Source: Candidatus Limnocylindrales bacterium (GTDB lineage: Bacteria; Chloroflexota; Limnocylindria; Limnocylindrales; CSP1-4). Taken from it: a DNA stretch of 58,241 bases. The stretch's first letter is position 1; the number at the start of each line of letters is the position of its first letter. The stretch spans positions 1 to 58,241 of the forward strand of contig DATBSD010000091.1 of assembly GCA_036559965.1 (NCBI GenBank). Reading direction: 5' to 3'. Shown one piece after another: positions 13,763-46,164 of the stretch. Below the pieces are notes generated by a model. That model was not told the DNA's origin and searched no databases. It was given only the letters and a program-made list of their open reading frames with translations. Position numbers and translations under genes: made by a program.

Positions 13763-13767
13763 CGGGC

Positions 13768-22778: not shown

Positions 22779-22785
22779 GGCGATC

Positions 22786-23442
22786 ATGAGCGACGGCTCA
22801 CTGCTCTCGAACGAGAAGCGCAACCGGTTCCGCGCCATCGTCCAGCCCTACGCGGCCGGGCTGGCAAAGCTCGGTCTGACACCCAACATGCTGACGCTCA
22901 TCGGCTTCGGCATCGCCATCGCCTCGGCTGTCCTCGCCGGCCTCGAGCTGTGGGTCGCGGCCGGCATCGTGAGCGTCGTGGCCGGGTCGTTCGACATGCT
23001 CGATGGCGCCGTGGCGCGCGCGACCGGCCAGACGTCGAAGTTCGGCGCCTTCATGGACTCGACGTTCGACCGCTGGGGCGAGGGCGTCATCTACGTCGGC
23101 ATCGTGGCCGGCGCCGCGGCCGCTGCCAACCAGGCGACGGCCATCCTGGCCGTGCTTGCCGCCGTGTGCGCCTTCATGGTCAGCTACACGCGAGCCAAGG
23201 CCGAGGGTCTCGGCTTCAGCGGCGAGGTCGGCATCGCGCCGCGACCCGAGCGCATCGTCATCCTTGGCGTCGGGCTCGTCGCCAGCGGCCTGACCGGCGG
23301 CCCGGCGGCATCGCCCTGGCTCCAGATCGCCCTCGGCGCCATCGTCGTGCTGACGACCATCACCATCATCCAGCGCATCCTTCACGTCCGCCGCCAGGCC
23401 AGCCAGGCGGCCATCGAACCAGCATCCACGTCCAGCGAGTAG
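22786..23442 (+). CDS. CDP-alcohol phosphatidyltransferase, phosphatidylinositol-phosphate synthase type (PgsA1-like)
   Basis: Family motif DMLDGAVARATGQTSKFGAFMDSTFDRWGE (D-x2-DG-x2-AR...G-x3-D-x3-D). About six TM helices. Assigned to the inositol-phosphate branch by context (ino1, PimA and acyltransferases downstream). Confidence 0.8.
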   Translation: MSDGSLLSNEKRNRFRAIVQPYAAGLAKLGLTPNMLTLIGFGIAIASAVLAGLELWVAAGIVSVVAGSFDMLDGAVARATGQTSKFGAFMDSTFDRWGEGVIYVGIVAGAAAAANQATAILAVLAAVCAFMVSYTRAKAEGLGFSGEVGIAPRPERIVILGVGLVASGLTGGPAASPWLQIALGAIVVLTTITIIQRILHVRRQASQAAIEPASTSSE

Positions 23443-23466
23443 CCAGAGGAACAGGGAGAACCCATC

Positions 23467-24702
23467 GTGAGCAAGAACGGCAAGAACGGCGCCAACGCGT
23501 CGACCGAGACCACCTGGGCCGGCGCGGGGCGCCGCGGAGACGGCAAGATCCGGGTCGCCATCGTCGGCGTCGGCAACTGCGCGTCGAGCCTCGTCCAGGG
23601 TCGCTACTACTACGAGAACGCCAAGGCCGACGACTTCGTGCCCGGCCTGATGCACGTCGACCTGGGCGGCTACCACGTCCGCGACATCGAGTTCGTGGCC
23701 GCCTTCGACGTCGACAAGAACAAGGTCGGCCGAGATCTTTCGGAGGCCATCTACACGAAGCCCAACAACACCTACGTCTTCCAGCAGGTACCGCACCTCG
23801 ACGTGCGCGTCGAGCGGGGCATGACCCACGACGGCCTGGGCAAGTACCTCAGCCAGGTCATCACCAAGGCGCCCGGCCCGACCGCCGACGTGGTCGGCAT
23901 CCTCAAGGAGCGCGAGGTCGACGTCATGGTCTCCTACCTGCCCGTCGGCAGCGAGCAGGCGACCAAGTGGTACGTCGAGCAGGCCCTGGCGGCCGGCGTC
24001 GGCTTCATCAACGCCATCCCCGTCTTCATCGGCCGGGAGCCCTACTGGCAGCGACGCTTCGCCGATCGCGGCCTGCCGGTCATCGGTGACGACATCAAGA
24101 GCCAGGTCGGCGCGACCATCAGCCACCGCGTGCTGACCCGCCTGTTCATGGATCGCGGCGTCCGCCTCGATCGGACGTACCAGCTCAACTTCGGCGGCAA
24201 CACCGACTTCCTGAACATGCTCGAGCGCGAGCGCCTGGAGTCGAAGAAGATCTCCAAGACGAACGCCGTGACGTCGATGCTCGACTACGACCTCGACCCC
24301 GACGACGTCCACGTCGGCCCCAGCGACCACGTGCCGTGGCTGCTCGACCGCAAGTGGTGCTACATCCGGATGGAGGGCACGACCTACGGCGACGTGCCGC
24401 TCAACGCCGAGCTCAAGCTCGAGGTCTGGGACAGCCCCAACAGCGCGGGCGTCATCACCGATGCCATCCGCTGCCTCAAGCTGGGCCTCGACCGCGGCCT
24501 CAAGGGCACCCTCGTGGCGCCCTCGAGCTACTTCATGAAGAGCCCGCCGATGCAGATCCACGACGACATCGCCTTCAACCGCGTCGAGGCGTTCATCCGC
24601 GGCGAGGACAGCGAGACACTCGTCGGCACGGAGATCCTGCCGACCAAGAAGGTGCGCAAGCTGGCGGGGTCGCGCGCCAAGGTCGCCGCCGGCGCCCAGT
24701 AG
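23467..24702 (+). CDS. ino1: myo-inositol-1-phosphate synthase
   Basis: The product is 411 aa. N-terminal Rossmann fold [18 protein letters not shown], plus [14 protein letters not shown] and [17 protein letters not shown], typical of bacterial/archaeal MIPS. Confidence 0.88.
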
Positions 24703-24721
24703 CGCCGGCGGCACGGTCGCG

Positions 24722-25780
24722 ATGACCGAGCAGTCGAGTGAGGAGATCGTCCGCGGCGATCGACCGGCCACGAGCCGGCCGGTGGGGGGCCTCGCGCACG
24801 GCCCCCTGAAGCGCACGTCGCAAGGGTCGTGGGTCGGCCGCGCCCTCGTCCGCCTGACCGAGCGCGCCGTCGTGCTGGGCTATCGTTTCGCCTCCTGGCT
24901 GCTCGGCGTCGTGCCGCTCGGCATCAGCCTGCCGCTCGCCGGCGGCGCGATGCGCGTGGCCTGGGTCGTCTGGCCGGCCAAGCGACGAGTCATCCTCGCC
25001 AACGCGTCGCACATCCTCGGCCGCCCGACCGACGACCCCGCCGTGCGTCGCCTCGCGGGGCGCGTCTATCAGACCTATGGTCGCTACATCGTCGAGCTCA
25101 TGCGCCTGCCGTCGCTGCCGCCGGAGGCACCGGCGGCGATGATGGATTCGCGCGGCGAGCGCGGAGTCGATGCCTTCGCCGAGCTCTGGGCGAGGCTGGA
25201 GGCCGAGGGCCGGGGCATCATCGCCCTGTCCATCCACATCGGCAGCATCGAGACGCTCATCGCCGCCATGGCCGCACGCGGCTTCCCGACGTACGGCCTG
25301 GCCGACGACTCGTCGTATCCCGAGCTCTACGCCCTGCTCCAGGCCCAGCGCAAGCGCTGGGGCGTCGACGTCTTCCCGTGGAAGCAGCTCCGTCGCGTCT
25401 ATGCCGTCCTGCGCCAGCCGGCGTTGCTCGGCCTGCTCGTCGACTGGGGCTACCGCGCCGACGGCATCCCGGTGCGGCTGTTCGGCGACTGGACGACGCT
25501 GCCGGCCGGCCCGGCCGTGCTGGCAGCCAAGACGAACGCGGTCATCGTGCCCATCGTCTGCCGTCGGCTGCCCGGCGGCCGATTCAGTGCCGAGTGGCTC
25601 GACCCGATCGAGGTCGTCGACGACGATCCGGCGACGATCAGCGCCGCCACGCAGGCCGTCGCCCACGCCCTCGAGGGGATGGTCCGGCCGGCGCCGGAGC
25701 AGTGGTACACGTTCAAGCCCATCTGGCCGACATCGGTCGATGAGGCCGCCGAGCTCGCGGCACGGGTGACGTCGTCGTGA
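24722..25780 (+). CDS. LpxL/HtrB-family lysophospholipid acyltransferase (PIM acyltransferase PatA-like), copy 1
   Basis: H-x4-E motif in LSIHIGSIE. LABLAT-family layout (Y..YGRYIVE...LLVDWGY...GPAVLA). Sits in the position that patA occupies in pgsA1-patA-pimA operons. Confidence 0.75.
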   Translation: MTEQSSEEIVRGDRPATSRPVGGLAHGPLKRTSQGSWVGRALVRLTERAVVLGYRFASWLLGVVPLGISLPLAGGAMRVAWVVWPAKRRVILANASHILGRPTDDPAVRRLAGRVYQTYGRYIVELMRLPSLPPEAPAAMMDSRGERGVDAFAELWARLEAEGRGIIALSIHIGSIETLIAAMAARGFPTYGLADDSSYPELYALLQAQRKRWGVDVFPWKQLRRVYAVLRQPALLGLLVDWGYRADGIPVRLFGDWTTLPAGPAVLAAKTNAVIVPIVCRRLPGGRFSAEWLDPIEVVDDDPATISAATQAVAHALEGMVRPAPEQWYTFKPIWPTSVDEAAELAARVTSS

Positions 25781-26715
25781 CAGCGGGGCAGCGCGGCAAG
25801 CTGGCGGCCTTGCGTGCCGTGACCTGGCTCGCCTGCCATCTGCCGGAGCGGCCGCTCCATCGCTGCTTCGCGGCCATCGGCGCCGCGCTCTACCTCGTCG
25901 ACGGCACGCGGCGCGACCTGGCGCGCCGCAATCTGACCCGGATCTGCGCCTGGCTGGTGGCCGAGGGCCGGGCCACGCCGCGGGTCGCCCGGGCGGCGCG
26001 AGACCGACGCGCGATGGACCGCCTCGTCAGGTCGGCGTTCAGCCACCACGCCCGCTACTACCTCGAGGTCCTGCGCATCTCGACCCTCACCGGCGCCTAT
26101 CTCGAGGCGCGCCTCGACTTCGGGGACTGGGAGCCCATCAGGGCAGGCTTCCGCGCCGTTACCGAGAAGCGCGGCCTGATGTACATCGGCATGCACTACG
26201 CGTCGATGGAGGTCCCCGCCCGGTACGCCATCCTCCAGACCGGGGCCATCGCCCTGACGCCCATGGAGACCGTCGACGATCCGGCCATCCAGGCCTGGGC
26301 CGAGGAGCAGCGGCAGCCCATCGGACTCGAGATCATCGACCCGGCACGTGGCGGCCGGCGCATGCTGGCCTACGCCCGCGAGGGCGGCCTGCTGACCGTC
26401 GTCGGCGACCGGCCGCTGGCCGGGACCGCGCGTCCCGTCGAGCTCTTCGGCGCGCCGGCCATGCTGCCCGTCGGCCCGGCGCTGGTCGCGGTCGAGACGG
26501 GCATCACCTGCCAGATCGCCGTCTCGCGCCGGACGGGGCTGGGCACGTATGAGATCGACCTCCACGAGCTGGCTGTCCCGGCTCCCGGCGGACCGCTGCG
26601 CGAGCGCATGGCGACCTTCATGGCCGCTGAGGCGCGTGCCATGGAAGGCATCGTCGCGGTCGCCCCCGAGCAGTGGTGGACGTGCATGTACCCGATCTGG
26701 GATGACATCCGATGA
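25777..26715 (+). CDS. LpxL/HtrB-family acyltransferase, copy 2 (paralog of the preceding gene)
   Basis: The start is a GTGA overlap with copy 1. H-x4-E motif in IGMHYASME, plus LTVVGDRP and MLPVGPALVAVETG. Confidence 0.7.
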   Translation: MTAGQRGKLAALRAVTWLACHLPERPLHRCFAAIGAALYLVDGTRRDLARRNLTRICAWLVAEGRATPRVARAARDRRAMDRLVRSAFSHHARYYLEVLRISTLTGAYLEARLDFGDWEPIRAGFRAVTEKRGLMYIGMHYASMEVPARYAILQTGAIALTPMETVDDPAIQAWAEEQRQPIGLEIIDPARGGRRMLAYAREGGLLTVVGDRPLAGTARPVELFGAPAMLPVGPALVAVETGITCQIAVSRRTGLGTYEIDLHELAVPAPGGPLRERMATFMAAEARAMEGIVAVAPEQWWTCMYPIWDDIR

Positions 26716-27527
26716 GCGCGTCAGGCCCGGGGTCGGTCGGTCGCGCCGACCTCCACATCCACTCCGCCGCGTCCGATGGCGTGGCCGGCGTTGACGCCAT
26801 CCTGCGTCATGTCCAGGAGCAGACCGACCTCGACGTCATCGCCATCACCGACCACGAGCGCATCGACGCCGCCCTGGCGGCGCAGGCCATGGCTGCCGAT
26901 CGCGGCGCACGCTTCGAGGTCATCGTCGGCGAGGAGGTCACCACTCGCAGCGGTCACCTGCTCGGCCTCTTCCTGCGTCAGCCCGTGCCGCCGCTGCGAT
27001 CGCTGCGCTGGAGCATCGCGGCCATCCACGAGCAGGGCGGCCTGGCCATCCCCGCACATCCGCTCGTGCCGGTGCCGATGAGTACGTCGGCACGTCGCAT
27101 CCGAGCGCTGCTCGACGATGCCGACCGCGCGGTCCAGCCGGACGCGCTCGAGGTCTTCAACCCGACGACCGTCGGCCGGCGCTGGCATCCGCGCGTGGTC
27201 GCCTTCGCCGCCCAGCACGGCCTGCCCGGCGTGGGCAACAGCGATGCCCACCTGCCGGCGCACATCGGCCAGGTCACGACCGGCTTCGAGGGCCACACCG
27301 CAGAGGACCTGCGCCGCGCCATCGAGGCCGGCACGACGACCTGGCAGGGCGACTTCTACCCGCCGCTCGCCCAGGTCGGCATGTTCGGGCACCAGGTCCG
27401 CAAGTACGCTCGCGACGTGCGCGACGAAGTGCGCGGCAAGCTGCTGCGTGACGGCACGGGACGTGACCTGGGCTATCCGGGTGGGCGGCAGCGACCGCCG
27501 CGCTTCGAGATCGACCGGCGGCCATGA
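26712..27527 (+). CDS. PHP-domain metal-dependent phosphoesterase
   Basis: ATGA overlaps at both ends. PHP motifs ADLHIHSAASDG, IAITDHERID, GEEVTT..GHLLG, IPAHPL and NSDAH. Confidence 0.8.
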   Translation: MSASGPGSVGRADLHIHSAASDGVAGVDAILRHVQEQTDLDVIAITDHERIDAALAAQAMAADRGARFEVIVGEEVTTRSGHLLGLFLRQPVPPLRSLRWSIAAIHEQGGLAIPAHPLVPVPMSTSARRIRALLDDADRAVQPDALEVFNPTTVGRRWHPRVVAFAAQHGLPGVGNSDAHLPAHIGQVTTGFEGHTAEDLRRAIEAGTTTWQGDFYPPLAQVGMFGHQVRKYARDVRDEVRGKLLRDGTGRDLGYPGGRQRPPRFEIDRRP

Positions 27528-28708
27528 AGATCGGCCTCGTCACGCCGTATGTCTATCCGCTGCCCGGCGGCGTCAACGAGCACGTCCGCTACCTCTACGA
27601 CGGCCTCCTCGAGCGGGGCCACGAGGTGCGCATCATCAGCAGCACGCACGGCCTCCAGCGCGCCGCCGAGGGCGATGTCATCCGACTCGGGCGTGGCTTC
27701 AGCGTGCCGACCAACGGTTCGATGGGCACGGTCACCGTCTCGCCCCGCTACCTGTCTCAGATCAGCCGCCTGCTCGATCGCGAGCGCTTCGACGTGCTCC
27801 ATTTCCACGAGCCGTTCGTGCCGCTCCTGTCGCCATTCCTGCTCCGCGAGTCGAACAGCGTCAACGTGGCCACGTTCCATGCGTACGCCGGCTGGAGCCC
27901 GTCGTACGAGCTAGGCAGCCGGTTCATGGGCCGGCTCGCCGCGCGCCTGCACGGCCGCGTCGCGGTCAGCGCCGCCGCCCGCCACTTCATCGATCGCTAC
28001 TTCCCGGGCGACTACAAGGTCATCCCCAACGGCGTCGACCTGGGTCGCTTCGGCGACCTCGAGCCCATCGAGCAGTGGCGCGACGGGACGGCCAACCTGC
28101 TCTTCGTCGGCCGCTTCGAGCAGCGCAAGGGCCTGCTCGTGCTGCTCCGCGCGTTCCGAGCCCTGCGGCGTTCCGGTCGCGACTGCCGCCTGCTCGTCGT
28201 GGGTCGCGGGCCGCAGGAGCGCGAGGCGCGACGCTACATCGCCACGCGCGGCCTGACCGGCGTCCATCTGCTCGGGCGGGTGAGCGACCAGGAGAAGGCG
28301 CGCCTGTTCGCGACCGCCGACGTCTACGTCTCGCCGGCCACCGGCCAGGAGTCGTTCGGCATCGTGCTGCTCGAGGCGATGGCCGCCGGCACGGCCATCG
28401 TGTGCAGCGACATCCACGGCTACAAGGGCGTCGTCCGACGCGGTCAGCAGGCGCTCCTCGTGCCGCCGCGCGACCCCGTCGAGCTGGCCGAGGCCATCGG
28501 CAGCCTGCTCGACGACCCGGCGCTTCGGGCTCGCATGGGCGCCTCCGGACGACAGCGGGCCGAGCAGTTCTCGTGGCCGAGCATCGCGGCCAAGGTCGAC
28601 GACTACTACGGCTTCGTCATCCGCCGACTCGCGAACCAGGGCGCGCTGCCGGCAGATTTTCGGTCGGACGTGCCGGCCGCGCCACGGCCTCCCCGAGCGG
28701 TGGCCTGA
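27524..28708 (+). CDS. pimA: GT4 (GT-B) GDP-mannose-dependent phosphatidylinositol alpha-mannosyltransferase PimA-like
   Basis: The N-terminus MKIGLVTPYVYPLPGGVNEHVRYLYDGLLERGHEVRIIS closely parallels the PimA N-terminus. The C-terminal E-x7-E region is GQESFGIVLLEAMAAGTAIV. Confidence 0.8.
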   Translation: MKIGLVTPYVYPLPGGVNEHVRYLYDGLLERGHEVRIISSTHGLQRAAEGDVIRLGRGFSVPTNGSMGTVTVSPRYLSQISRLLDRERFDVLHFHEPFVPLLSPFLLRESNSVNVATFHAYAGWSPSYELGSRFMGRLAARLHGRVAVSAAARHFIDRYFPGDYKVIPNGVDLGRFGDLEPIEQWRDGTANLLFVGRFEQRKGLLVLLRAFRALRRSGRDCRLLVVGRGPQEREARRYIATRGLTGVHLLGRVSDQEKARLFATADVYVSPATGQESFGIVLLEAMAAGTAIVCSDIHGYKGVVRRGQQALLVPPRDPVELAEAIGSLLDDPALRARMGASGRQRAEQFSWPSIAAKVDDYYGFVIRRLANQGALPADFRSDVPAAPRPPRAVA

Positions 28709-28719
28709 ACGTCAGGTCG

Positions 28720-29550
28720 TCAGGGCCGGATGAACAGCGAGCGGGACCACTCGCCGACGTTGCCCTTCTTGTCCCGCGCCCTGATCCGATACTCGTAGAG
28801 TTGGCCCTTGAGCAGGCGGCGGACCATGCCGTCGCGGGTGGTCGCGCTGTAGACCGTCGTCCAGGCGGTCACGCCGGGGCGGCGCTTCTGGACCTGGTAG
28901 CTGGCGAAGCCGGCGGTCAGCACCTGGAGTCGGCGGTCTGCGCCCTTCCACTCGATGCGCACCCGACGCCGGGCGCCGCTGCTCGCCGTCGAGACCGTGT
29001 CGGCGCTGGCGTTGCTGTCGGTCCGGAACTTGGCCCACGCGCCGGTGCGGTCAGGGCCCTTCATGAAGATGGCCGTCCAGATCTTCTTGCCGCTCCCGTC
29101 GACCGCCAGGCCGATGCCGAAGTAGTTGTAGTCGGCGCTCGTCAGCAGCTTGTAGTGACCGGACGAGTCATGCCACTGGCGGCTGACCGCGCTGGCCGAC
29201 TCGCTCAGCGTGCCGTGCGTGTTCCAGGCGATGTTCTCGCCCGCCCCGAACCACCGGATGCCGGCGTCGCTCATGAGGTCCCAGGCCCAGTCGCCATCGG
29301 GCTCCTGGTGGGAGAAGTAGCCCTTCGAGGCCATGTCCTCCGACCGACCTCGAGCGATGGCGGCCAGCCTGGCGTCGCGGCGGAGCACGACGCGGCCGAT
29401 GGCCTGGCGCTGGTCGTTGAGCAGGCCAGCGACCTTGGCCTCGGCCCCGGCGACGGTCAGATCGTCGGCGGCAGCGACGATGGGGACGATGGTGGCGAGC
29501 AGCAGGGCGGCCAGGGCGATCGGGCCCAGGCGTCGGGCGATGGTCATCAT
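28720..29550 (-). CDS. secreted CAP/SCP (PR-1-like) domain protein with a C-terminal FN3-like beta domain
   Basis: Internal ATG of track ORF 28720..29610. Signal-like MMTIARRLGPIALAALLLATIVPIVAAA. CAP motifs MASKGYFSHQ, GENIAW and SSGHYKLL. The C-terminus (VRIEWKG...YQVQKRR.G...W..V...T......L.KGQLYEYRIRARD..GN.GEWS) looks FN3-like. Confidence 0.7.
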   Translation of the reverse strand: MMTIARRLGPIALAALLLATIVPIVAAADDLTVAGAEAKVAGLLNDQRQAIGRVVLRRDARLAAIARGRSEDMASKGYFSHQEPDGDWAWDLMSDAGIRWFGAGENIAWNTHGTLSESASAVSRQWHDSSGHYKLLTSADYNYFGIGLAVDGSGKKIWTAIFMKGPDRTGAWAKFRTDSNASADTVSTASSGARRRVRIEWKGADRRLQVLTAGFASYQVQKRRPGVTAWTTVYSATTRDGMVRRLLKGQLYEYRIRARDKKGNVGEWSRSLFIRP

Positions 29551-29700
29551 CGTCCCCTGGCGTGGCAACGGACCGGGACCTCCGGCGCGGACCGCCAGTC
29601 TCCCCGGCAACGGCCGCCGACTCCATAGCCAAGCGGTCCCATGGCCGCCCGACCCGGTGGTACGGGCGGGCGGTGCGCGGATGCACCATCGACCGAGCGC

Positions 29701-32700
29701 TCAGGCCGTCGCGGAGCCGCCTTCTGTGGGGTCCTCGTCGGGCCCGGGGGCCCAGCCGCCGGAACGCCAGACGGCGGCTGCGTACATCGCCGCACCGGCC
29801 AGACAGGCGACCATCGCAGTCAGGGCCACCGACTCGAGGCTCAGGAAGCTCGTCTCGGTCGCGCCGGCTGTGTTGACCGCGAACTGGAAGTCGTAGTTGT
29901 AGGTCGAGAGCGGCAACGTCTGGAACAGCCGCGCCAGGCCGGTCGGCACGGGCAGTGCCGCGATCGTCGGCTGGAAGGCGACGAACCAGATGATCATGGC
30001 GCCGAACGTGCCGATGATGAAGCGGCGCGGATCGCGCGCCCCGATGACCAGCCAGGCGGCGACGGCGAGCGGCAGGCCGAGCAGCAGCGCACCGACGTAC
30101 GGCCCGATGTCGCCGATGGGTGCGGTCACGAGCGGTGTCTCGGCGAAGCGCGACTGGACGATGGCCACGGCCACGCCCGTCGTGACCGCCGTGATGAGCA
30201 GCCAGATGGCGCCCGGCGGCAGCCTGCCACCCGGCGTCGCCTCGAAGTCGGAGCGCCGCCGGCGGAGACCGAGCGTGTGCGCCTGCCAGGCCAGGATGAC
30301 GATGCCGACGAGCACGATGAGCAGCGACACGGCGGCCCGCTCGGTGAGCACGAACGCCTCGCTCACGTAGCCGCATGCCTGCGAGCCCGGATTGACCTGG
30401 GCGACGCCCGAGACCGCGCAGAGCGGCACGCGCAGCAGCCAGAGCAAGGGCACCGCGACGAGCATGGCCGCGACCGACACGCGTGCCAGCAGCCAGGTCC
30501 GTGCCGAAGGACCGTGCCACAGCTCGGCCAGGAAGTAGGCCAGGCCGATGATCACGAACGGCAGGCTCGTGTAGTAGTGGTACTGGAAGGTCGCCCGGTC
30601 GATGCGCGCCCAGGGCAGCCACTGGCAGGCGAAGCCGATGAGCACCAGCGCGAGGGCCAGGCTGCGGCGGTGCCAGGCGGTGAAGGCGAGCCAGATCATG
30701 GCCGGCACCGAGAGCCAGAAGAGGACGAGGTTGCCGGCGTCGTAGATGACCGCCGTCCACCCCTCCGCCAGGTTGCCCAGGTAGAACCAGACCGGCTTGA
30801 GATCGAAGGGCCAGGCCCACCACGGCGACGATGCGGCGTGCGTCGCGCGCAGGTTGTCGTGGTACTCGTACATCTGGATCTGGAGCGCGAGCAGGGTCTG
30901 GCCTTCGTTGCCGGCCGGGAACGACTCGATCCAGCGGTTGCCGAGCTCCACCCAGGGAGCGAAGCTGATGACGTAGACGACGACCGGGATGGCCAGCACG
31001 CAGCCCAGCGCCCACAGCCAGGGCAGCCCGAAGCGCCAGCCGGGTCGCAACCAGCCACGCGGCGGTTGACCGGCCGGCAGGCCTCCCGCGGGCTCGATGG
31101 TGACCGTTGGGGCCAGGGGTCCACGGCCGCGCGACGCGGCCATCGCCAGGCCGATGTAGGCCAGGACCCCGACCGCGACGAGGCCGAGCGAGGCCGCCAG
31201 GAGGGTCGTGGGATCGACCATGCCCTCGCTCGGCAGGCTCGAACTCGCGGCCACGAGCAAGAGCGTGCCCACGATGCCCAGCACGACGGGCGCGGCCACC
31301 GCGAAGCGTGCCTCGTCGCGCGACCAGCGGACCGGCCGCAGGACGATGGCCACGGCCAGCAGCAGGGTGACCGCGAGCGTGATGACCACGAACACGCCAT
31401 TGCCCTTGACGCTCACCAGGATCGGCGCCGCGACGGCCGCGAAGACAAGGCCGACGAGGAGGACCGTCCTGCCTGCCCGGGAGACATGCAGGACGAGACC
31501 GGTGAGCAGCATCGCCAGGATGGTCACCACGATCGTGCCCACGACGTCCGGCGTGCTCGACGTCGGCGAGCTGATGGCCACCCAGCCCAACACGCCGGTC
31601 ATGGCGATGAGCGCGGCCAGGGCGATGAGCCTGCCGACCGCCGAGCGGATGAGGATGAGCAGGACGATGCCACCGATGGCGTATAGCCCGACCCATTTGG
31701 CGGCCAGCGCGAGGCCCAGGATGACGCCCAGCAACGGCAGGCCCACGAGCAGGGCGCTCCAGCCACGCCAGCGCCCGAGCCAGAGCAGGGCGAAGACGAG
31801 GTAGGCGGCGGCGATGAAGGCGCCGACATAGACATCGTTCATGCCGATGCGCGACTGGGCGAACATCATGCCGTCGACGAGCACCAGCCCGGCCACGGCC
31901 AGCCCGACCGTCCGACGGCGGATGAGGACGCGCGCCAGGAGGTAGATGAGCGCCGCCGTGAGGGCGCCCAGGATGACGCCCGGCAGCCGCCACCCGAAGG
32001 CGTTGCGGCCGGTCTCGACGACGGCCACCTGGCCATCGGCCGCGATGGTCAGCAGCTGTTGGCGATCCTGGCTCGGGCGATCGGCATCGGCATCGAGCGC
32101 CCATGCGACCGGCGGCGCCGGCAGCAGCGCGTCGGCATAGACGGCGTTGGCGTGCGGCTCGACGACGTAGACCGTCGAGGCGTCGCCGTCCGGTGTCCGC
32201 CCGAGCACGTGGAGCATCTGGGTCGCGGAGTCGTACACGAGGTCGTACACGGCCGCGGGCATCCAAACGTCATCGCGCTTGACCGGCGCCTGACCCTTCT
32301 TGACTTCGACCCGCAGCAGCCGCTCGCCGGTCGTGCCATAGAGCGTCGGCTCGGCGGGACCCTCGACGTGAACGACCGATGTCACCGGCGCATCCGTGGC
32401 GATGGCATCGACGCGAGCCAGGGTGGCCGCGTCGAGCAGCACGAGGCCCTCCGTCGCGGCGACGGCCACGAGGTCGCCGCTCTCGATCGTCGTGCCCGGC
32501 AGCTCGCCTTGGTCGAGCGCCTCCTGGATGTTGATGGCCTCGTCCTGTTCGAGGTTCGAGACGACGGTCACGACGCCCTCGGCACCGACCAGCAGTGCAC
32601 GGATCCGCGTGGCGTCGTCGGCCAGGATGCCGGCCAGCGTCTCGGCCAGGCTGCCGGGCTCGTCGACCGCGCCGACGTCGACGACGAGGCGCTGGCCGCC

Positions 32701-35253
32701 GGTCGTGGCCGCAGCGTCCGCCGCCCCAGGCACCGCCGCCTCGGCAAGGATGGTGCCGTCGGCCAGGTCGACGATGGCGACACGGCCGTCGTCGAGCACG
32801 GCGGTCAGGCGCTCGCCGGTGTCGTCGACGATCATCGCCTGGACGGGCGCGCCGAGGTCGCCGAGTCGATCGGCCGACGGCACGATGGTCGGGTCATCGC
32901 CGGCCCGGACGTCGTCGAGGTAGCGCGTGTCGAGCGTCCAGAGTCCGCCGGACATGTCGCTGATGACGAGCCGGTGGCTGGTCTCGTCGATGGCCAGCGC
33001 CTTGGGCTGGGCGCCATCGAGCTGGAGCTCGGTCACGAGCTGCCGGCCGGCGAGGTCGAACGCGCGCACACCGCCGTCACCCGAGACGTAGAGCCGGTCG
33101 CCGGCGCGGCCGGCCGTCGATGCCACGGCGTCCCAGCGTCGCTCGATGACGGCATCGCGTGGCGCGAAGCCGAGCGCGGAGGTCGCGCTGACCTCGTCGT
33201 CACCGAAGAGCACGATGCCGGCGGCCATGAGGTACTTGGCCAGGTGCGGGTGCGTGTACTCGTAGATGGCATGCGGCTCGCCGTACCGCCAGTGCTGGAG
33301 GAACTCGGTCGCGGTACGAGCGTGGTAGACCTCGTCGAAGTACATGTCGTAGGGCTCCTCGACGCGCCAGCCCCGCAGGGTCAGCGCCGAGACGAGCAGC
33401 AGCAGGGCGACGAAGACGTCGAGACGATCGATCCGGCCGGGCGGCTCACCGGCCAGCTCGGCGCTCCGATCGCGGCGTCGGAGGCCGCTGCCGACCTGGC
33501 GGCGGACGGCCGACCGAAGGCCGGCCAGCAGCGGCGCATCGTCGCCCTCGTCGTCGTGCTCCGCGGACCCTGCCGGATCTCCGCCCATGGTCACGACCGC
33601 GGCGGCACGCGTTGCGGTCGCCTCGCGGTCGGACGGGGCAAGGGCCACGGGCTCGGGTCGCGGCCGAACCTCCTCCAGCCAAGGCGCGTCGACGACCGCG
33701 CCAAGTGCTGCCAGCCCGGTCGGATCCGGCACCCGCGCAGGTTCGTCGCGCGACGGGCTGGGCGCGGTCATGGGGTCGGGCGCGTCGAGCGCGGCCGGCT
33801 CCATGTCGACGAGGGGCGTCGCGATCACGCTGGCGTCGGTCCGCAGCGTCGCCCGAACGACCTGCCAGAGCAGGAACAGGAAGACACCGGTCGTGACGAA
33901 GACGCTGCCGAGCAGGACCGGCGTCGCCCGGAAGTCCGGGCCGAAGAAGAAGTCGTCGAGGTTCGGGGTGGCCCAGATGGGCGAGCTCAGCACCGCGTGC
34001 AGGTTGACGAAGGTCGAGATGGCCAGGATGACGGTCGCCACGAGGTAGCGCCGATCGAGGATGGCGAGCAAGGGCAGCAGCGAGAAGACCGGGAACAGGT
34101 AGCGCTCGTGGACGCGCGTCGGCAGCATGAAGAAGGCGAGGCAGAGGTAGGCGGCGGCGAGCAGGATCGTCAGGCGCTCGTCGCGCCGGACGAGCAGCGC
34201 CAGCCCGACCACGAAGCCGCCCACCAGAAGCACCGTCCCGATGACGACCCCGGGCACGGGTCCGATGAGCCCGATCGTGTCCGACGGCCAGCGCCCCAGG
34301 CCCGCCTCGACCATCGCGCTCTGATCGCCCGAGCCCACCAGCGCCCAGGGGTTGAGGGCGTTGACGGTCAGGTAGGCGTACGTGCCGGCGGCCCGGCCGT
34401 ACTGGATGATGAGACCGGGCATATCGAGGCCGAACGGCGCCACGACGACGACCAACAGGCTGGCGCCGACGGCCGCCGATGAGACCAGGCGCCAGATGCC
34501 GGTCTCGTGCTCACACCATCGCCGATACCACGATGGCCCGGCCGTCACCCGCGGACCGCTGCCCGGGAGCAGCAGGTGCCGGCGCAACAGCACGACGGCC
34601 AGCAGGGGCACGAGGACCACGCCGTACTGCGGTTTCGCGAGGCCGGCCAGCACGGTCACCGCCGTGGCTGCCTCCTCGTGGCCCTCGACGAGCAGCGCGA
34701 CCATGGCCAGGGTCAGCAGCGCGCCGATCGCGTCGACCTGGCCCCAGATCGCCGAGTCGTACCAGGTCACCGGGTTGAACACGTAGAGCGCGGCGGCGAG
34801 CAGCGCCAGCTGCCCGCCTCGGGGGCGGTCCCCGAACCAGCGCATGGCCACGACGTAGAGCAGCGCGCCGGTCGCGATGTCGGCCAGGATGGGCGGCATC
34901 TTGAGCAGCGCCGTCGTCGTCGCCACGCCGGTGCCGTCGGCGGCACCGATGATCTGGCCGAGTCGCCCCAGGAACCCCAGCACGAGCATGTAGGCGGGCG
35001 GGTAGTCGGACAGGCCGGGCACGTCGTAGAAGCCCGCAGCGCCGACCTCGACCATCCGGAATGCCCAGGCGGTGAAGGTCCCAAGGTCCGACTCGAAGCC
35101 GGACTTTGGCAGCAGGACGTATGCGATGATGAGCCGGAGGGCCAGGGCGGCCAGCAGCAGGATCGTCAGGGCTGGGACGGCCGATGGCGCCCGGACCGAG
35201 CGAGTCGACGCTCCGAGGCCCCGATCGGGCGCACCCGCCCCGGGCGTCGTCAA
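29701..35253 (-). CDS. roughly 1850-aa polytopic fusion glycosyltransferase: N-terminal PIG-V/Gpi18-like GT-C module, acidic/Pro-rich linker, then a PMT (GT39) protein-O-mannosyltransferase-like GT-C module interrupted by a roughly 400-aa repeat-rich soluble insertion, plus an extended C-terminal TM region
   Basis: Lies in the 3' 5.5 kb of track ORF 29701..36072. The start is taken at TTG 35253, with GGAGG 11 nt upstream; an alternative TTG lies at 35271. There is no in-frame ATG/GTG before the first TM helix. Module 1: LPKSGFESDLGTFTAWAF...GLSDYPPAYMLVL. Module 2: YDMYFDEVYHARTA...YTHPHLAKYL, FGWRLPGVILGALTAALIYLLAR, SRIGMNDVYV, SSPWWAWPF, GNLVLFW, ATFQYHYY. Confidence 0.75.
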   Translation of the reverse strand: MTTPGAGAPDRGLGASTRSVRAPSAVPALTILLLAALALRLIIAYVLLPKSGFESDLGTFTAWAFRMVEVGAAGFYDVPGLSDYPPAYMLVLGFLGRLGQIIGAADGTGVATTTALLKMPPILADIATGALLYVVAMRWFGDRPRGGQLALLAAALYVFNPVTWYDSAIWGQVDAIGALLTLAMVALLVEGHEEAATAVTVLAGLAKPQYGVVLVPLLAVVLLRRHLLLPGSGPRVTAGPSWYRRWCEHETGIWRLVSSAAVGASLLVVVVAPFGLDMPGLIIQYGRAAGTYAYLTVNALNPWALVGSGDQSAMVEAGLGRWPSDTIGLIGPVPGVVIGTVLLVGGFVVGLALLVRRDERLTILLAAAYLCLAFFMLPTRVHERYLFPVFSLLPLLAILDRRYLVATVILAISTFVNLHAVLSSPIWATPNLDDFFFGPDFRATPVLLGSVFVTTGVFLFLLWQVVRATLRTDASVIATPLVDMEPAALDAPDPMTAPSPSRDEPARVPDPTGLAALGAVVDAPWLEEVRPRPEPVALAPSDREATATRAAAVVTMGGDPAGSAEHDDEGDDAPLLAGLRSAVRRQVGSGLRRRDRSAELAGEPPGRIDRLDVFVALLLLVSALTLRGWRVEEPYDMYFDEVYHARTATEFLQHWRYGEPHAIYEYTHPHLAKYLMAAGIVLFGDDEVSATSALGFAPRDAVIERRWDAVASTAGRAGDRLYVSGDGGVRAFDLAGRQLVTELQLDGAQPKALAIDETSHRLVISDMSGGLWTLDTRYLDDVRAGDDPTIVPSADRLGDLGAPVQAMIVDDTGERLTAVLDDGRVAIVDLADGTILAEAAVPGAADAAATTGGQRLVVDVGAVDEPGSLAETLAGILADDATRIRALLVGAEGVVTVVSNLEQDEAINIQEALDQGELPGTTIESGDLVAVAATEGLVLLDAATLARVDAIATDAPVTSVVHVEGPAEPTLYGTTGERLLRVEVKKGQAPVKRDDVWMPAAVYDLVYDSATQMLHVLGRTPDGDASTVYVVEPHANAVYADALLPAPPVAWALDADADRPSQDRQQLLTIAADGQVAVVETGRNAFGWRLPGVILGALTAALIYLLARVLIRRRTVGLAVAGLVLVDGMMFAQSRIGMNDVYVGAFIAAAYLVFALLWLGRWRGWSALLVGLPLLGVILGLALAAKWVGLYAIGGIVLLILIRSAVGRLIALAALIAMTGVLGWVAISSPTSSTPDVVGTIVVTILAMLLTGLVLHVSRAGRTVLLVGLVFAAVAAPILVSVKGNGVFVVITLAVTLLLAVAIVLRPVRWSRDEARFAVAAPVVLGIVGTLLLVAASSSLPSEGMVDPTTLLAASLGLVAVGVLAYIGLAMAASRGRGPLAPTVTIEPAGGLPAGQPPRGWLRPGWRFGLPWLWALGCVLAIPVVVYVISFAPWVELGNRWIESFPAGNEGQTLLALQIQMYEYHDNLRATHAASSPWWAWPFDLKPVWFYLGNLAEGWTAVIYDAGNLVLFWLSVPAMIWLAFTAWHRRSLALALVLIGFACQWLPWARIDRATFQYHYYTSLPFVIIGLAYFLAELWHGPSARTWLLARVSVAAMLVAVPLLWLLRVPLCAVSGVAQVNPGSQACGYVSEAFVLTERAAVSLLIVLVGIVILAWQAHTLGLRRRRSDFEATPGGRLPPGAIWLLITAVTTGVAVAIVQSRFAETPLVTAPIGDIGPYVGALLLGLPLAVAAWLVIGARDPRRFIIGTFGAMIIWFVAFQPTIAALPVPTGLARLFQTLPLSTYNYDFQFAVNTAGATETSFLSLESVALTAMVACLAGAAMYAAAVWRSGGWAPGPDEDPTEGGSATA

Positions 35254-35286
35254 CAGGCGACCGGCCTCCAAAGAACGAGCGACGAG

Positions 35287-36723
35287 GTGGAGGGGAGTAT
35301 AGCAACGGCGCCTGCCGACACCCGTTCGGCCGATCCAGCCGCTGCGGCCCCCGGCGACGGCATCGCCGGCCGCCTCGGACGCCTCGATCCCCGCTGGCTG
35401 ACGATCGGTTTCGTGGTCCTTGGCATCGTCGTCTACATCGTCAGCAACCCCAGCCGCCAGAACTTCTACAACCACTTCGTGTGGCAGGCCGACGCCTTCC
35501 TCCAGGGCCGCGCCTGGATCCCCTGGCCGCTGACCGATGGTCAGTTCCAGAACGGCTACTTCCAGGACGTCTTTCCCATCGGGGACGGGCGTGGCCTGCT
35601 GCCGTTCCCGCCACTGCCCGCCATCGCGTTGCTGCCGTTCGTGGCCGCGTTCGGGCTGGGCACGGACGCCGCTCTCGTGGCGGCCGTGCTCGGCGGCATC
35701 AACCTCGGGCTTGCCCATCGGATGGTCCGGCGCCTCACGAGCGATGCCCTGGTAGCCATCCTGGCCGCGCTCTTCTACGGCTTCGGGACGGTCGCCTGGT
35801 ATGCCGCCATGCTCGGCAGCACCTGGTTCCTGGCACATGTCGTCGCGTCGACGTTCCTGCTGCTGGCCATCACCGGCGCCCTCGACGCCGACCGCCGCTC
35901 CGCTCGCGAGGCGGCTGCCGTCGCGGCCGAGGACGAGGGCGCCGGATGGCGACGTGCCTGGCCGCCCGATGGGCGCCAGGTCATTGCCGGGCTGCTGTTC
36001 GGCATGGCGGCGGCGGCGCGCCTGACGACGCTCCTGGCGGCGCCCTTCTTCGTCTTCGTCGGCGGCGGCCACTCGGCGCTCCGTCGCGGCCTGTCAGCGG
36101 GCATCGGCGCGGTCATCCCGGTGCTCCTGCTGCTGGCCTACAACGTGGCCACCAGCGGCCAGCTCTTCCACCCCGGGTACGAGCACCTCTACCAGACCGA
36201 GTACACGCCCGTCCCGTCGGGCCTGCTCGCTCAGCTCGTGCCGGCCCTTGAGGGCATCACCTATCACCCCGGGGAGTGGGCCCTCCAGGACCCCCGCTAC
36301 GTGCCGCAGAACCTGCTCATCCTCCTGGCCTGGCTGCCCGAGGTCCACACCGAGTGCGGTTTGGCACTGCTCGACCAAGGCTGCGCGTTGATCCGACCCG
36401 ATAGGTTGGGCATGAGCGTCCTGCTCACCAGCCCCGCCTGGCTGCTGGGGCTGCCCGTCGTGCTGCGCGAGTGGCGCCGGCGGATCGTGCTCGGGTCGGC
36501 GCTCGCGGTCGGCGCGGTCACGCTCGTCAACCTCATGCACTTCAGCCAGGGCTGGGTCCAGTTCGGATATCGCTTCAGCAACGACGCCGCGCCATTCGCC
36601 CTGCTCCTCGTGACGCTCGGGCTGGCGCGCTACGGCGTGCGCTGGTGGACGGCCGGCCTGGTGCTGCTCTCGATCGTCATCAACGCCTGGGGCGTCTACT
36701 GGGGCGTCGTCCTCGGCTGGTGA
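35287..36723 (+). CDS. GT-C fold membrane glycosyltransferase (ArnT/PMT_2-like), paralog A
   Basis: GTG 35287 is an internal start of track ORF 34507..36723; the upstream part of that ORF is antisense to the giant gene. After TM1 comes the loop motif WQADAFLQGRAWIPWP...LPFPPLPAIALLPFVAAFG. The C-terminal motif VQFGYRFSNDAAPF is shared with the next gene. Confidence 0.7.
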   Translation: MEGSIATAPADTRSADPAAAAPGDGIAGRLGRLDPRWLTIGFVVLGIVVYIVSNPSRQNFYNHFVWQADAFLQGRAWIPWPLTDGQFQNGYFQDVFPIGDGRGLLPFPPLPAIALLPFVAAFGLGTDAALVAAVLGGINLGLAHRMVRRLTSDALVAILAALFYGFGTVAWYAAMLGSTWFLAHVVASTFLLLAITGALDADRRSAREAAAVAAEDEGAGWRRAWPPDGRQVIAGLLFGMAAAARLTTLLAAPFFVFVGGGHSALRRGLSAGIGAVIPVLLLLAYNVATSGQLFHPGYEHLYQTEYTPVPSGLLAQLVPALEGITYHPGEWALQDPRYVPQNLLILLAWLPEVHTECGLALLDQGCALIRPDRLGMSVLLTSPAWLLGLPVVLREWRRRIVLGSALAVGAVTLVNLMHFSQGWVQFGYRFSNDAAPFALLLVTLGLARYGVRWWTAGLVLLSIVINAWGVYWGVVLGW

Positions 36724-36729: not shown

Positions 36730-37968
36730 TCAGAAGCTGACGAAGTCGAGGACCGTGATGACGTAGATGCCGTAGGCGTGGACGAGGATGCCGATGAGGA
36801 TCGCGAGGCGCGCGGGCAGGGAGATGCGGCGCACGAAGAGCATGCCCAGCATGATCCACAGGATGGGCGCCACGTCGAGGCTGAACCGGTAGCCGAACTG
36901 TGTCTCGCCGACATTGCCGTGGGTCACGATGGGGATGAGCGCGCAGAGGATGGCGACCCAGCCGAAGACCACGAACGGCTCGCGCCGGCGGAGCTTGATG
37001 AGCCAGAAGTAGATCGGCGTCGTGAACGTCAGCGCGAGGCCGGTCCAGTTGGGCCGGAACCAAGGGAAGCCGTCGGCGAAGTCGAAGCCGCGGACGAAGA
37101 TCGTGTGCAGGTGCCTCGGGATGTAGCTGATGGACAGGATGCCATCGCGATACCAGGGCTCTAGGAGCACGCCGGGGATCCTTTCGTAGCCGAAGTCGAA
37201 GGGGCTGCCGAAGCGAGCGATGTTGTAGAGCGCGACGAGCACCGCCGGCACGGCCAGGCCGACGACGAACAGCCCCGCGTCGGCGAGGCGGCGCCGATCG
37301 GGGATGGCGAGGCGCGGCGCGACCTGCACCCCGGCGTACAGCGCGAGGTAGAGCGGCAGGGTCAACCCGACCGGCAAGCGTGAAGCGGCGGCCGCTCCCA
37401 GGCACAGCCCGGCAACGACCGGCCAGCGCCGATCGAGCGCCAGCCAGAGCGCGAGCAGGGACCAGAAGACACCGTTGACGCCGGCGAACAGCCACGACGT
37501 GCCCATGCCGGCCGCCCACCAGAGCACGCTGCCGACGGCGAACGCGGCCGTCAGGGAGCGTCGCGGCAGCGGCGCCACGCCCAGTCGTCCCAGGATCGTC
37601 CACAGGATGGCGACGCTCAGGCCGCCCAGGATGGCCGCCGCGTAGCCCTGGTCGAAGCCGGCCCCGAAGACGGCCACGAAAGGCAGCACCGAGATGGCCG
37701 GCATGGGCGGATAGGGCACGTACCAGCTGCCATCGGGCCGGTCGACATGCTCGATCCAGGGCATCGGCTCGATGATGTGGAGCCGGCCGTGGAGGAAGGC
37801 GTCGGCGAGCGGCACGAAGGCGTCCAGGCCGACCGGCTTGGGACCGGTCCACCAGTAGAGCAACGCGGCGCCGGCGGCGATGAGGGCGAAGGTCGTCAAC
37901 GCACGCCACGCGCTAAGGCCCTCGTCGGGTGTCGCCGAGGCGTCCGCCGCGGCGGGGGCAGCGGCCAT
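36730..37968 (-). CDS. GT-C fold membrane glycosyltransferase (ArnT/PMT_2-like), paralog B
   Basis: The product is 412 aa. Motifs: LADAFLHGRLHIIEPMPW...VPYPPMPAISVLPFVAVFG and TQFGYRFSLDVAPI. Converges on paralog A with a 6-nt gap. Confidence 0.75.
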   Translation of the reverse strand: MAAAPAAADASATPDEGLSAWRALTTFALIAAGAALLYWWTGPKPVGLDAFVPLADAFLHGRLHIIEPMPWIEHVDRPDGSWYVPYPPMPAISVLPFVAVFGAGFDQGYAAAILGGLSVAILWTILGRLGVAPLPRRSLTAAFAVGSVLWWAAGMGTSWLFAGVNGVFWSLLALWLALDRRWPVVAGLCLGAAAASRLPVGLTLPLYLALYAGVQVAPRLAIPDRRRLADAGLFVVGLAVPAVLVALYNIARFGSPFDFGYERIPGVLLEPWYRDGILSISYIPRHLHTIFVRGFDFADGFPWFRPNWTGLALTFTTPIYFWLIKLRRREPFVVFGWVAILCALIPIVTHGNVGETQFGYRFSLDVAPILWIMLGMLFVRRISLPARLAILIGILVHAYGIYVITVLDFVSF

Positions 37969-37989
37969 GGCCCCGACTATACTGCCGCG

Positions 37990-38805
37990 ATGTCCGTCCC
38001 CGCCGCCTCAACGACCACGGCGACGGCGCCTGCCCAGGATGCCGGATCGAGTCGTGTCGCCGCCCTGACCTACTTCTTCCCGGCGCACAACGAGGCCGAG
38101 AACATCGAGGCGCTCGTGGCTGAAGCGCTGGAGTCGCTGCCGGCCCTGGCCGAGACGTTCGAGATCATCGCCGTCGACGACGGCAGCAAGGACGGCACGG
38201 CGGCCATCGCCGATCGCCTCGCCGAGCAGCACCCCGGCGTCGTCCGCGTGGTCCATCACCCGGTCAACCGTGGCTACGGCGCCGCACTGCGGAGTGGTTT
38301 CGCGGCCGCCGGTCACCCGCTCATCGCCTTCACCGACGGCGACCGGCAGTTCCGCGTCGCCGACATCGGCCGCCTGCTGGCTCGGTCGGCTGCAGCCGAC
38401 GCGCCCGACGTCGTCGTCGGCTACCGCCTCCGACGCGCCGACCCGACCATCCGCCTGGTCTACGCCAGGGCATATCGCTTCTGTCTCCGGCTGTTCTACG
38501 GGCTGCCGGTGCGCGACGTGGATTGTGCCTGCAAGCTCTTCCGTCGCGAGGCCCTCGAGGGCATCCGCCTCGAGTCGGGCGGCGCCTTCCTGTCGGCCGA
38601 GCTGCTGATCAAGGTTCGCGCCCGTGGGCGCAGCATCGGCGAAGTCGGCGTGCCCCACCATCCGCGCACGGCCGGCCAGGCATCGGGCGCCGATCCGCGC
38701 GTCGTGGCGCGTGCCATCCGCGACTTCTGGCGGCTGCGGCTGCGGCTCTGGTTTCGACGTGGCCCCGCACTCGAGCGCGGCGAACCGGTGCTCGGTCCGT
38801 CCTAG
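37990..38805 (+). CDS. GT2 polyprenol-phosphate sugar synthase (Ppm1/DPM1/GtrB-like)
   Basis: Internal ATG 37990 of track ORF 37747..38805. Motifs: YFFPAHNEAENIE, IIAVDDGSKDGT, NRGYGAALRSGF, AFTDGDRQF, CACKLFRRE. Confidence 0.8.
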   Translation: MSVPAASTTTATAPAQDAGSSRVAALTYFFPAHNEAENIEALVAEALESLPALAETFEIIAVDDGSKDGTAAIADRLAEQHPGVVRVVHHPVNRGYGAALRSGFAAAGHPLIAFTDGDRQFRVADIGRLLARSAAADAPDVVVGYRLRRADPTIRLVYARAYRFCLRLFYGLPVRDVDCACKLFRREALEGIRLESGGAFLSAELLIKVRARGRSIGEVGVPHHPRTAGQASGADPRVVARAIRDFWRLRLRLWFRRGPALERGEPVLGPS

Positions 38806-43116: not shown

Positions 43117-43141
43117 GTGCCGGGTCGGCCGCGGCAGCCGC

Positions 43142-45950: not shown

Positions 45951-46164
45951 CGATGGCACGACCTGTGTTCGGGGCCCAAGACGATAGATCGGCCATCCGG
46001 GCCCATATGGGCGGCGTCGGATGGCGTTGTCGACACCGGTCGACGAGCGGTCGTCGCGCTGCTCCTCCCGCATCCTGCCGGGTCGTCGGTGGCCGATCGC
46101 CACCTGCGTCCCGGCGCCGGAGGCCTGGGAAGCGTAGCACCGCGGTTGGGGCCTCGCAACGTGA

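Follow-up and report, generated by a model that had tools for sequence, protein, structure and literature searches.

A predicted β-propeller inserted into the GT39 module of a putative two-module GT-C protein from Candidatus Limnocylindrales

Overall architecture

The 58,241-nucleotide stretch of contig DATBSD010000091.1 from a Candidatus Limnocylindrales bacterium (GenBank assembly GCA_036559965.1), referred to here as the window, carries on its minus strand a large gene (29701..35253, 1850 codons plus stop) that encodes an N-terminal module of predicted glycosyltransferase C (GT-C) fold, a linker and a GT39/protein mannosyltransferase (PMT) module with a propeller insert. The insert (32008..33201, minus strand, residues 958-1355) is predicted to fold into a β-propeller, for which seven blades are the best reading. 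By analogy with a mycobacterial complex described below, we consider it somewhat probable that the protein acts as a single-chain glycosylation machine dependent on polyprenyl-phosphate-mannose, whose propeller would serve as an acceptor-handling cap over the active site. Residue numbers throughout are those of the listed 2123-codon open reading frame (ORF) at 29701-36072 (minus strand); in the numbering of the 1850-residue protein the propeller insert likely comprises residues ~684-1083.

Structure of the propeller insert

Modelling of residues 880-1420 by AlphaFold2 with a 66-sequence alignment resulted in a mean pLDDT of 91.6 and a pTM of 0.90, with no segment below a pLDDT of 50. An earlier reading made from the sequence alone had proposed that a seven-bladed propeller is grafted next to the catalytic loop and that this segment would prove ordered and repetitive, and the model agrees with both expectations: DSSP assigns to the insert about 30 β-strands with a four-strand periodicity. 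A Foldseek search against the PDB yielded 1697 matches at E≤0.001, with E values of 1e-10 to 1e-13 and TM-scores of 0.65-0.73 (normalised on the target) for the named top matches. Those recognised among the latter, Tup1, TLE1, Gβ, PRPF19 and Lp49, we take to be seven-bladed propellers. The repeat is judged to be real rather than a product of chance, being visible in the sequence too: in profile-profile comparisons of the blades (hhalign), the pairs B1-B3, B1-B4, B1-B5, B2-B3, B3-B4, B3-B7 and B5-B6 align in register with probabilities of 26-84%. The seven recurring strand-like units picked out in the sequence-only reading are all present (residues 993-1013, 1033-1048, 1087-1109, 1200-1221, 1243-1257, 1286-1306 and 1339-1355), and each turns out to be the B-C hairpin of one blade.

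The blade count, which was derived from DSSP and the alignments, is best read as seven because there are seven B-C hairpins, because inserts of homologues lacking an additional segment described below measure 311-328 residues (about 7 × 45), and because the top structural matches are seven-bladed. Blade B1 (33019-33171) comprises strands A 971-977, B 993-998, C 1001-1006 and D 1012-1016, followed by B2 (32851-33018; A 1023-1029, B 1034-1039, C 1043-1048, D 1068-1072) and B3 (32725-32850; A 1077-1082, B 1088-1093, C 1097-1102, D 1108-1113), all blades being encoded on the minus strand. B4 is discontinuous (32695-32724 and 32392-32478), with strand A at 1119-1123 and, past the additional segment, B at 1201-1206, C at 1209-1214 and D at 1220-1225. 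The ring continues with B5 (32257-32391; A 1230-1236, B 1243-1248, C 1251-1256, D 1264-1270) and B6 (32119-32256; A 1275-1281, B 1286-1292, C 1299-1305, D 1310-1316). In B7 (32008-32118; A 1321-1327, B 1339-1344, C 1348-1353) strand D is contributed by the N-terminal strand of the insert (961-966, 33175-33192), which closes the ring. The connections of the propeller to the flanking helices consist of 3 residues on the side of juxtamembrane helix JM2 and 2 residues on the side of transmembrane helix TM2. Both are modelled with high pLDDT, and the propeller would therefore be held rigidly next to the catalytic loop, not loosely tethered to it.

The earlier proposal that the entire insert of about 400 residues is a propeller holds for the seven blades; the segment between strands A and B of blade 4 is a different element. 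This sub-insert of about 72 residues (32479..32694, minus strand, residues 1127-1198) has the topology β-α-α-β-α-β according to DSSP, and its similarity to any blade does not exceed 0.9% in hhalign. An eight-bladed arrangement counting this segment as a blade was rejected on the grounds of this topology and lack of blade similarity, its absence from homologues with short inserts, and the seven blades of the recognisable best structural matches. The sub-insert is missing in 5 of 17 aligned homologues, and a sixth is devoid of most of it; the homologues without it have inserts of 311-361 residues as opposed to about 400. All 32 intact full-length relatives examined possess it, and one further locus is frameshifted there. 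Profiles containing the sub-insert match the pedestal of class B penicillin-binding proteins (PBPs), namely 4ovd_A residues 78-164 (E 1e-6), SpoVD (7rcz) and PBP3 (4ye5), and a profile restricted to the sub-insert still matches these entries with E values of 9e-6, 4e-4 and 8e-3, respectively. A Pfam scan of the sub-insert in 24 members gave no PBP_dimer match and only scattered matches at chance level. As a lead, the sub-insert appears to resemble an element of the N-terminal, non-catalytic pedestal of class B PBPs. In one homologue (P0145), the sub-insert region contains a low-complexity stretch rich in Ser, Thr and Pro, a type of sequence that typically carries O-glycans.

Named propeller families gave sub-threshold matches only: NCBIfam 7_blade_YncE matched weakly (E 1.3e-4, 20.9 bits against a cut-off of 400), and THOC3, EML, PQQ_2/BamB and DUF5074 appeared in homologues. 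Pfam and NCBIfam thus contain no family model that describes the insert, which constitutes an annotation gap.

The most conserved surface of the propeller is found in blades 6 and 7 (32062..32217, minus strand, residues 1286-1337; HxLG...TxYVxEP...D...D...P..DR), which adjoin the junction to TM2. Among 33 full-length family members, the set to which all conservation counts out of 33 refer, residues His1288, Leu1290, Gly1291, Thr1300, Tyr1302, Val1303, Glu1305, Pro1306, Leu1317, Asp1327, Pro1333, Asp1336 and Arg1337 are at least 94% conserved; Glu1305, Pro1306 and Arg1337 occur in 33/33, and Asp1314 is likewise among the most conserved propeller residues. In a more diverse set of homologues, E349 and P316 (insert numbering) are invariant.

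The GT39 module and the insertion site

The insert interrupts a recognisable PMT module. Pfam PMT (PF02366) matches with 48.4 bits (cut-off 22.7) in two split stretches, the second of which covers residues 1355-1476 and resumes at profile position 79, while PMT_4TMC (PF16192) matches residues 1726-1885 (30418-30897) with 49.7 bits (cut-off 32.4); homologues give the same pattern. In a profile of 66 relatives, the part from TM1 through FDEV aligns to residues 51-80 of yeast Pmt1 (FDEV corresponding to Pmt1 77-80) and the segment after the insert, from R-LPGV, to Pmt1 138-251. From the DE motif to TM2 the distance is about 60 residues in yeast Pmt1 as opposed to about 448 here, equivalent to a net insertion of about 390 residues. 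The flanks are accordingly the homologous PMT elements, as the sequence-only reading had presumed, and its placement of the insertion after the HPxLxKY helix is exact: 32005-33204 (minus strand) corresponds to residues 957-1356 of the listed ORF, with HPHLAKY at 941-947 and FGWR at 1359-1362.

According to DSSP of the AlphaFold2 model, the portion preceding the insert (33202..33435, minus strand) consists of TM1 (883-901), juxtamembrane helix JM1 (914-930) with the DE motif Asp913-Glu914 at its start (33331-33336), and JM2 (943-957), which is opened by HPHLAKY. TM2 starts at residue 1356, and the rest of the PMT module extends from there to residue 2123 (29704..32007, minus strand). For Pmt of Mycobacterium tuberculosis (MtPMT), mutagenesis identified D74, D176, R441 and Y444 as catalytic determinants (PMC12331936). 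All four have counterparts in the present protein, Asp913, Asp1413, Arg1826 and Phe1829, which are kept in 31-33 of the 33 family members. Phe912-Asp913-Glu914 aligns to FDEV of Pmt1 from Phe77-Asp78, with Asp913 in 33/33 and Glu914 in 32/33. In the second extracytoplasmic loop (EL2), the motif R1408-IGMN-D1413 (31834-31851, Arg-x4-Asp) places Asp1413, present in 32/33, on the Asp of SRYILLD in Pmt1 (D189). In EL5, Arg1826 and Phe1829 of DRATFQYHY (30586-30597 for R1826-x2-F1829) align to R649 and F652 of QRQMFLHHY in Pmt1 and are found in 33/33 and 31/33 full-length relatives, respectively; this stretch alone aligns below threshold, the whole-protein matches to Pmt4 and Pmt1 having E values of 3e-4 to 7e-4. 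Since each of the four determinants has a conserved counterpart, the PMT module looks catalytically competent. A search of the PDB sequences with the single sequence of the PMT module gave no match, and profiles were required. By its low score against the NCBIfam Pmt equivalog (see below), the module belongs to a divergent GT39 subfamily and is not an ortholog of actinobacterial Pmt.

The N-terminal module and the linker

The N-terminal module of 466 residues (33793..35190, minus strand, residues 295-760) was modelled by AlphaFold2 with a pLDDT of 83 and a pTM of 0.85. In Foldseek, its best match is ALG6 (6snh; E 2e-6, TM-scores 0.62/0.68), followed by PIG-U, by STT3A in the human oligosaccharyltransferase complex (8b6l), which superimposes poorly, and in fourth place by PimE (9dm5, GT87; E 5e-4, TM-score on the target 0.60); ALG3 and GPI mannosyltransferase I rank lower. 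The module of the window protein has no Pfam match above threshold. Weak matches occur in the N-terminal modules of the 33 relatives, to Alg6_Alg8 in 20, GT87 in 13 (best E 3.6e-6), PIG-U in 11 and Mannosyl_trans4 in 4. Comparison of the module profile with PDB sequences gave nothing meaningful, the fold being recognised only by the combination of AlphaFold2 and Foldseek, on which its assignment as a multi-helix membrane GT-C module of the ALG6/PimE class is based. Residues conserved to at least 94% include Asp329, Asp356-Tyr357, Asp398, Asp439, Asp447 and the motif TRVHERY (652-658). One relative is labelled 'Gpi18-like mannosyltransferase / ...protein mannosyltransferase' in IMG.

The two modules are joined by a linker of about 120 residues (33436..33792, minus strand, residues 761-879), which is rich in Ala, Pro, Arg and Asp and has a mean column conservation of 0.28. 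Where the model of the N-terminal module ends, on the side of the linker, its pLDDT drops to less than 50; the linker is predicted to be disordered and is presumably cytoplasmic. An Arg-rich stretch directly precedes TM1 of the PMT module.

Gene delimitation and distribution

The G+C content of the window is about 71%, and long spurious ORFs are therefore to be expected. Within the listed ORF, G+C at first codon positions (GC1) exceeds that at third positions (GC3) in residues 1-260, whereas GC3 amounts to 0.9-1.0 from about codon 295 onwards and is uniformly high across the re-delimited gene. Because of the relation GC1>GC3, the first ~260 codons were read as antisense, and the first ~273 codons of the listed ORF (35254-36072) are an antisense frame of a divergent GT-C-like gene. 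A TTG at codon 274 (nucleotide 35253) is preceded by GGAGG 11 nucleotides upstream, and the homologues P0033, P0060, P0085 and P0117 begin at the position equivalent to residue 274. TTG at 35253 is hence the likely true start, giving a gene of 1850 codons at ~29701-35253. The earlier reading was thus right about the position of the insert, but the listed ORF was over-extended at the 5' end by about 273 codons.

A database search with residues 870-1500 returned 172 relatives, most of them 38-48% identical and the closest ones 66-80%. Every relative that covers the region has an insert of 311-426 residues between the conserved motifs YE[WYF]THPHLAKY and F[AG]WRLPGV. When the GTDB species, each represented by one genome, were scanned with a four-sequence alignment including the FDEVYHART flank as query, at least 554 loci were detected, nearly all in metagenome-assembled genomes labelled Limnocylindria, Limnocylindrales or Chloroflexota. 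In a profile search of 1.84 billion representatives, 175 matches were obtained at E≤1e-30; the best 150 of these contain no stand-alone propeller, the element always occurring in the context of PMT loop 1. Three sequences initially considered as propellers without PMT flanks (P0233, P0170 and P0226) proved to be copies of this gene that are disrupted by frameshifts. Two homologues, P0145 (1439 residues, on a 228-kb contig) and P0243, are apparently propeller-bearing PMTs that lack the N-terminal module. Full-text literature searches retrieved no description of a GT39/PMT enzyme with a propeller in loop 1 or of a Limnocylindria mannosyltransferase of this kind.

Many database copies are fragmented or frameshifted (P0233, P0170, P0226, P0112, P0032 and locus L017), and public gene calls of 400-1100 residues therefore under-represent the true protein of about 1850 residues. 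Together with the over-extended 5' end of the listed ORF, this might raise the suspicion that the insert is an artefact arising from chance repeats in GC-rich sequence, from mis-assembly or from a gene join caused by sequencing errors. However, GC3 is uniform over the gene, the fold is modelled confidently, the element recurs in at least 554 species genomes, and the same continuous architecture is found in dozens of independent assemblies, where full-length ORFs mostly measure ~1650-2010 residues from stop to stop. The latter also indicates that the fusion of the modules is real. An artefact is thereby refuted, its residual probability being practically nil.

Proposed function of the propeller

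In PMTs, EL1 and the DE motif are universally extracytoplasmic. Arg-rich stretches are located before TM1 and after TM2, and the insert is free of TM-like hydrophobic segments. Taken together, the EL1 topology, these positive-inside flanks and the lack of a hydrophobic segment place the insert, in all likelihood, on the outer face of the membrane. The protein would then comprise three parts, a GT-C module of the ALG6/PimE class, a disordered cytoplasmic linker and a GT39 module that looks catalytically intact. From its place in EL1, by the DE motif with which JM1 begins, the propeller would cover the active site and retain or discriminate acceptors, which are probably unfolded stretches of exported proteins that contain Ser/Thr. 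In eukaryotic PMTs, acceptor recognition is aided by MIR, a soluble luminal domain. The propeller may play the role that MIR has there, that a WW-like element has in MtPMT and that the propeller Rv3212/ML0810c is proposed to have in mycobacteria. The fused N-terminal GT-C module could be the counterpart of a GT87-like partner of mycobacterial Pmt, with the covalent linker replacing a bridging subunit.

The mycobacterial precedent is a preprint of July 2026, in which Pmt (Rv1002c) co-purifies and phenotypically tracks with three partners: the GT87-like Rv0051, the eight-bladed periplasmic propeller Rv3212/ML0810c and the DivIVA-like Rv1209 (bioRxiv 10.64898/2026.07.15.738315). An AlphaFold3 model presented there positions the propeller directly above the DE site, and a function as a MIR-like gatekeeper was proposed; the GT87-like partner was described as catalytically dead, and its interaction with Pmt is said to be modest and to need a bridging protein (bioRxiv 10.64898/2026.07.15.738315). 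This combination of Pmt, a second GT-C protein and a propeller supports, but does not prove, a role of the present insert as an acceptor-handling cap. The sequence-only reading had suggested an acceptor-recognition domain analogous to MIR at a different position in the chain; this suggestion has gained a precedent, and both the binding of an acceptor and an equivalence with the subunits in mycobacteria are argued by analogy.

Several points weigh against a single-chain mannosylation machine with an acceptor-handling propeller. The position of the propeller over the active site is deduced from chain connectivity. The family of the N-terminal module is ambiguous, with ALG6 as the best structural match and only weak GT87 matches in 13 of 33 relatives, and the module keeps acidic residues, in contrast to the dead mycobacterial partner, so the correspondence between the two may be architectural only. 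With 35.5 bits, the GT39 module stays far below the cut-off of 800 set for the NCBIfam Pmt equivalog NF058602. As to the mycobacterial complex, it is known from a preprint, on the basis of pull-down, phenotype correlation and an AlphaFold3 model, and hence partly rests on prediction (bioRxiv 10.64898/2026.07.15.738315). The difference between seven blades here and eight in Rv3212/ML0810c hints at convergence, and the relationship of the two propellers may thus be one of analogy instead of homology. Finally, a conserved cluster of lipid genes next to the gene could point to a glycolipid acceptor (see below).

Alternatively, the propeller could be mainly architectural, docking the two GT-C modules or two protomers to each other on the outside of the membrane without touching the acceptor. 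The short rigid junctions and the high pTM would suit such a scaffold, as would the location of the most conserved face next to the membrane junction, the fact that PMTs are dimers, and the bridging protein said to be needed by the mycobacterial pair. However, the apparent PMT-only forms P0145 and P0243 retain the propeller, which is thus not strictly tied to the fusion, and the propeller of the mycobacterial model is placed over the active site instead of bridging the GT-C proteins (bioRxiv 10.64898/2026.07.15.738315). We therefore regard a mainly architectural role as unlikely.

If the propeller does serve as an acceptor-handling cap, the protein represents a single-chain version of a multi-subunit bacterial protein-mannosylation machine and provides 'Rosetta-stone' evidence for the link between GT39, a second GT-C module and an extracytoplasmic propeller, which so far depends on one preprint. 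As one polypeptide with fixed stoichiometry, it would be a simpler structural target for studying how a propeller presents an acceptor to a GT-C enzyme. Moreover, the design would not be confined to Actinobacteria but would extend to an uncultured lineage that is abundant in soil and freshwater, where the gene would be a conserved syntenic part of an envelope-biogenesis region near the replication origin.

Genomic neighbourhood and the nature of the acceptor

Synteny around the gene was evaluated over 80 related loci and is kept in 49-65 of them. One flank contains recF, a PP2C-like protein, a bifunctional nuclease and the divergent multi-TM GT-C-like gene (~35380-36723, plus strand), which adjoins the large gene in 64/80 loci. 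On the other flank, oriented tail-to-tail to the large gene, lie genes for a GT4 glycosyltransferase, a PHP-domain protein, two acyltransferases of the PatA/HtrB type, myo-inositol-1-phosphate synthase and a CDP-alcohol phosphatidyltransferase. This group (22639-28708, plus strand), which keeps its place in 49-64 of the 80 loci, is a phosphatidylinositol-mannoside (PIM)-like cluster; an actinobacterial-style phosphatidylinositol (PI)/PIM pathway in Chloroflexota would itself be notable.

The synteny bears on a further explanation, in which the acceptor is a glycolipid or lipoglycan resembling phosphatidylinositol-mannoside or lipomannan, with the propeller as a module that binds carbohydrate or the envelope and keeps the growing glycan in position. 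It draws on the PI/PIM-like neighbours together with the adjoining GT-C-like gene, on the resemblance of the N-terminal module to lipid-glycan mannosyltransferases of the PimE, ALG6 and PIG-M type, whose acidic residues it keeps, and on the tentative likeness of the sub-insert to the PBP pedestal, which hints at an envelope context. Yet the C-terminal module scores above the GT39 Pfam thresholds and keeps the acceptor-peptide and donor-phosphate residues of PMTs, and the synteny with the lipid pathway could reflect a shared need for polyprenyl-phosphate-mannose. We also know of no GT39 member that acts on lipids. A glycolipid acceptor is accordingly considered decidedly improbable. A more specific proposal, that the protein is not a protein O-mannosyltransferase but a GT39-derived, propeller-guided synthase of a PI-anchored mannan in which the N-terminal and GT39 modules act in succession, appears very doubtful. 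Were it correct, a single polypeptide would make up an actinobacterial-style lipoglycan pathway in Limnocylindria (Chloroflexota), and the acceptors of GT39 enzymes would no longer be confined to proteins.

A second multi-TM GT-C-like gene (36730-38007, minus strand) is a 27-31% identical paralogue of the divergent one and occurs only in the closest relatives; neither gene has a significant Pfam match. Directly downstream of the large gene, a secreted CAP-domain protein is encoded (28720-29700, minus strand), which has a signal peptide and a weak fn3-like C-terminus. Its gene is found only in the closest relatives (six loci), and the protein may be a substrate or an unrelated passenger. The genes dnaA, dnaN and recF (41968-46448, minus strand) are located ~6-10 kb from the large gene, which puts the locus near the origin of the chromosome. 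Further left in the window, a series of complex I (nuo) genes is found together with a gene for an Fe-S flavoprotein (4584-15246, plus strand).

Comparison with known systems

The closest counterpart is the mycobacterial Pmt complex, which would have in common with the present protein a GT39 unit, a second GT-C unit of the GT87/ALG6 class and an extracytoplasmic propeller by the DE site. Three of its four parts would be found on one chain in the present protein, whereas they are separate subunits in mycobacteria. A propeller serving Pmt is known only from the 2026 preprint, as a separate membrane-anchored protein, while here it is part of the chain, spliced into EL1. Seven blades plus an α/β sub-insert are deduced here as opposed to the eight blades reported there, and the second GT-C module of the present protein keeps conserved acidic residues. 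Furthermore, the modules are joined by the ~120-residue linker, and the host belongs to Chloroflexota rather than Actinobacteria. No DivIVA-like subunit was detected among the neighbouring genes scanned. Covalent joining of GT39 to a second GT-C module also has a parallel in translational GT39-GT87 fusions of Paenibacillus (UniProt V9WAU2, cited in bioRxiv 10.64898/2026.07.15.738315), for which no propeller is mentioned.

MtPMT shares with the present protein a bacterial GT39 core with the same catalytic residues and an extracytoplasmic element for acceptor selectivity; this element, however, is WW-like, comprises about 40 residues and is situated in EL4, in contrast to the propeller of about 400 residues in EL1 (PMC12331936). 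The eukaryotic enzymes PMT1, PMT2 and PMT4 have in common with it the GT39 core, the DE motif, the EL2 Asp and the EL5 motif Rx2[Y/F]. Their MIR domain is a β-trefoil in loop 5, whereas the Limnocylindrales protein is devoid of MIR and bears its propeller in loop 1.

Extracytoplasmic domains or partners are also known from other GT-C enzymes, such as the PMT-clan O-mannosyltransferases TMTC1-4 with their tetratricopeptide repeats (TPR), STT3/PglB, EmbA-C, AftD, and AftB with a β-propeller partner. As in the present protein, a membrane core is combined in these systems with a soluble, non-cytoplasmic repeat or binding domain that handles the acceptor. In contrast to the propeller described here, however, that domain lies at the C-terminus or forms a subunit of its own, and consists of TPR, of a carbohydrate-binding module or of a mixed α/β fold.

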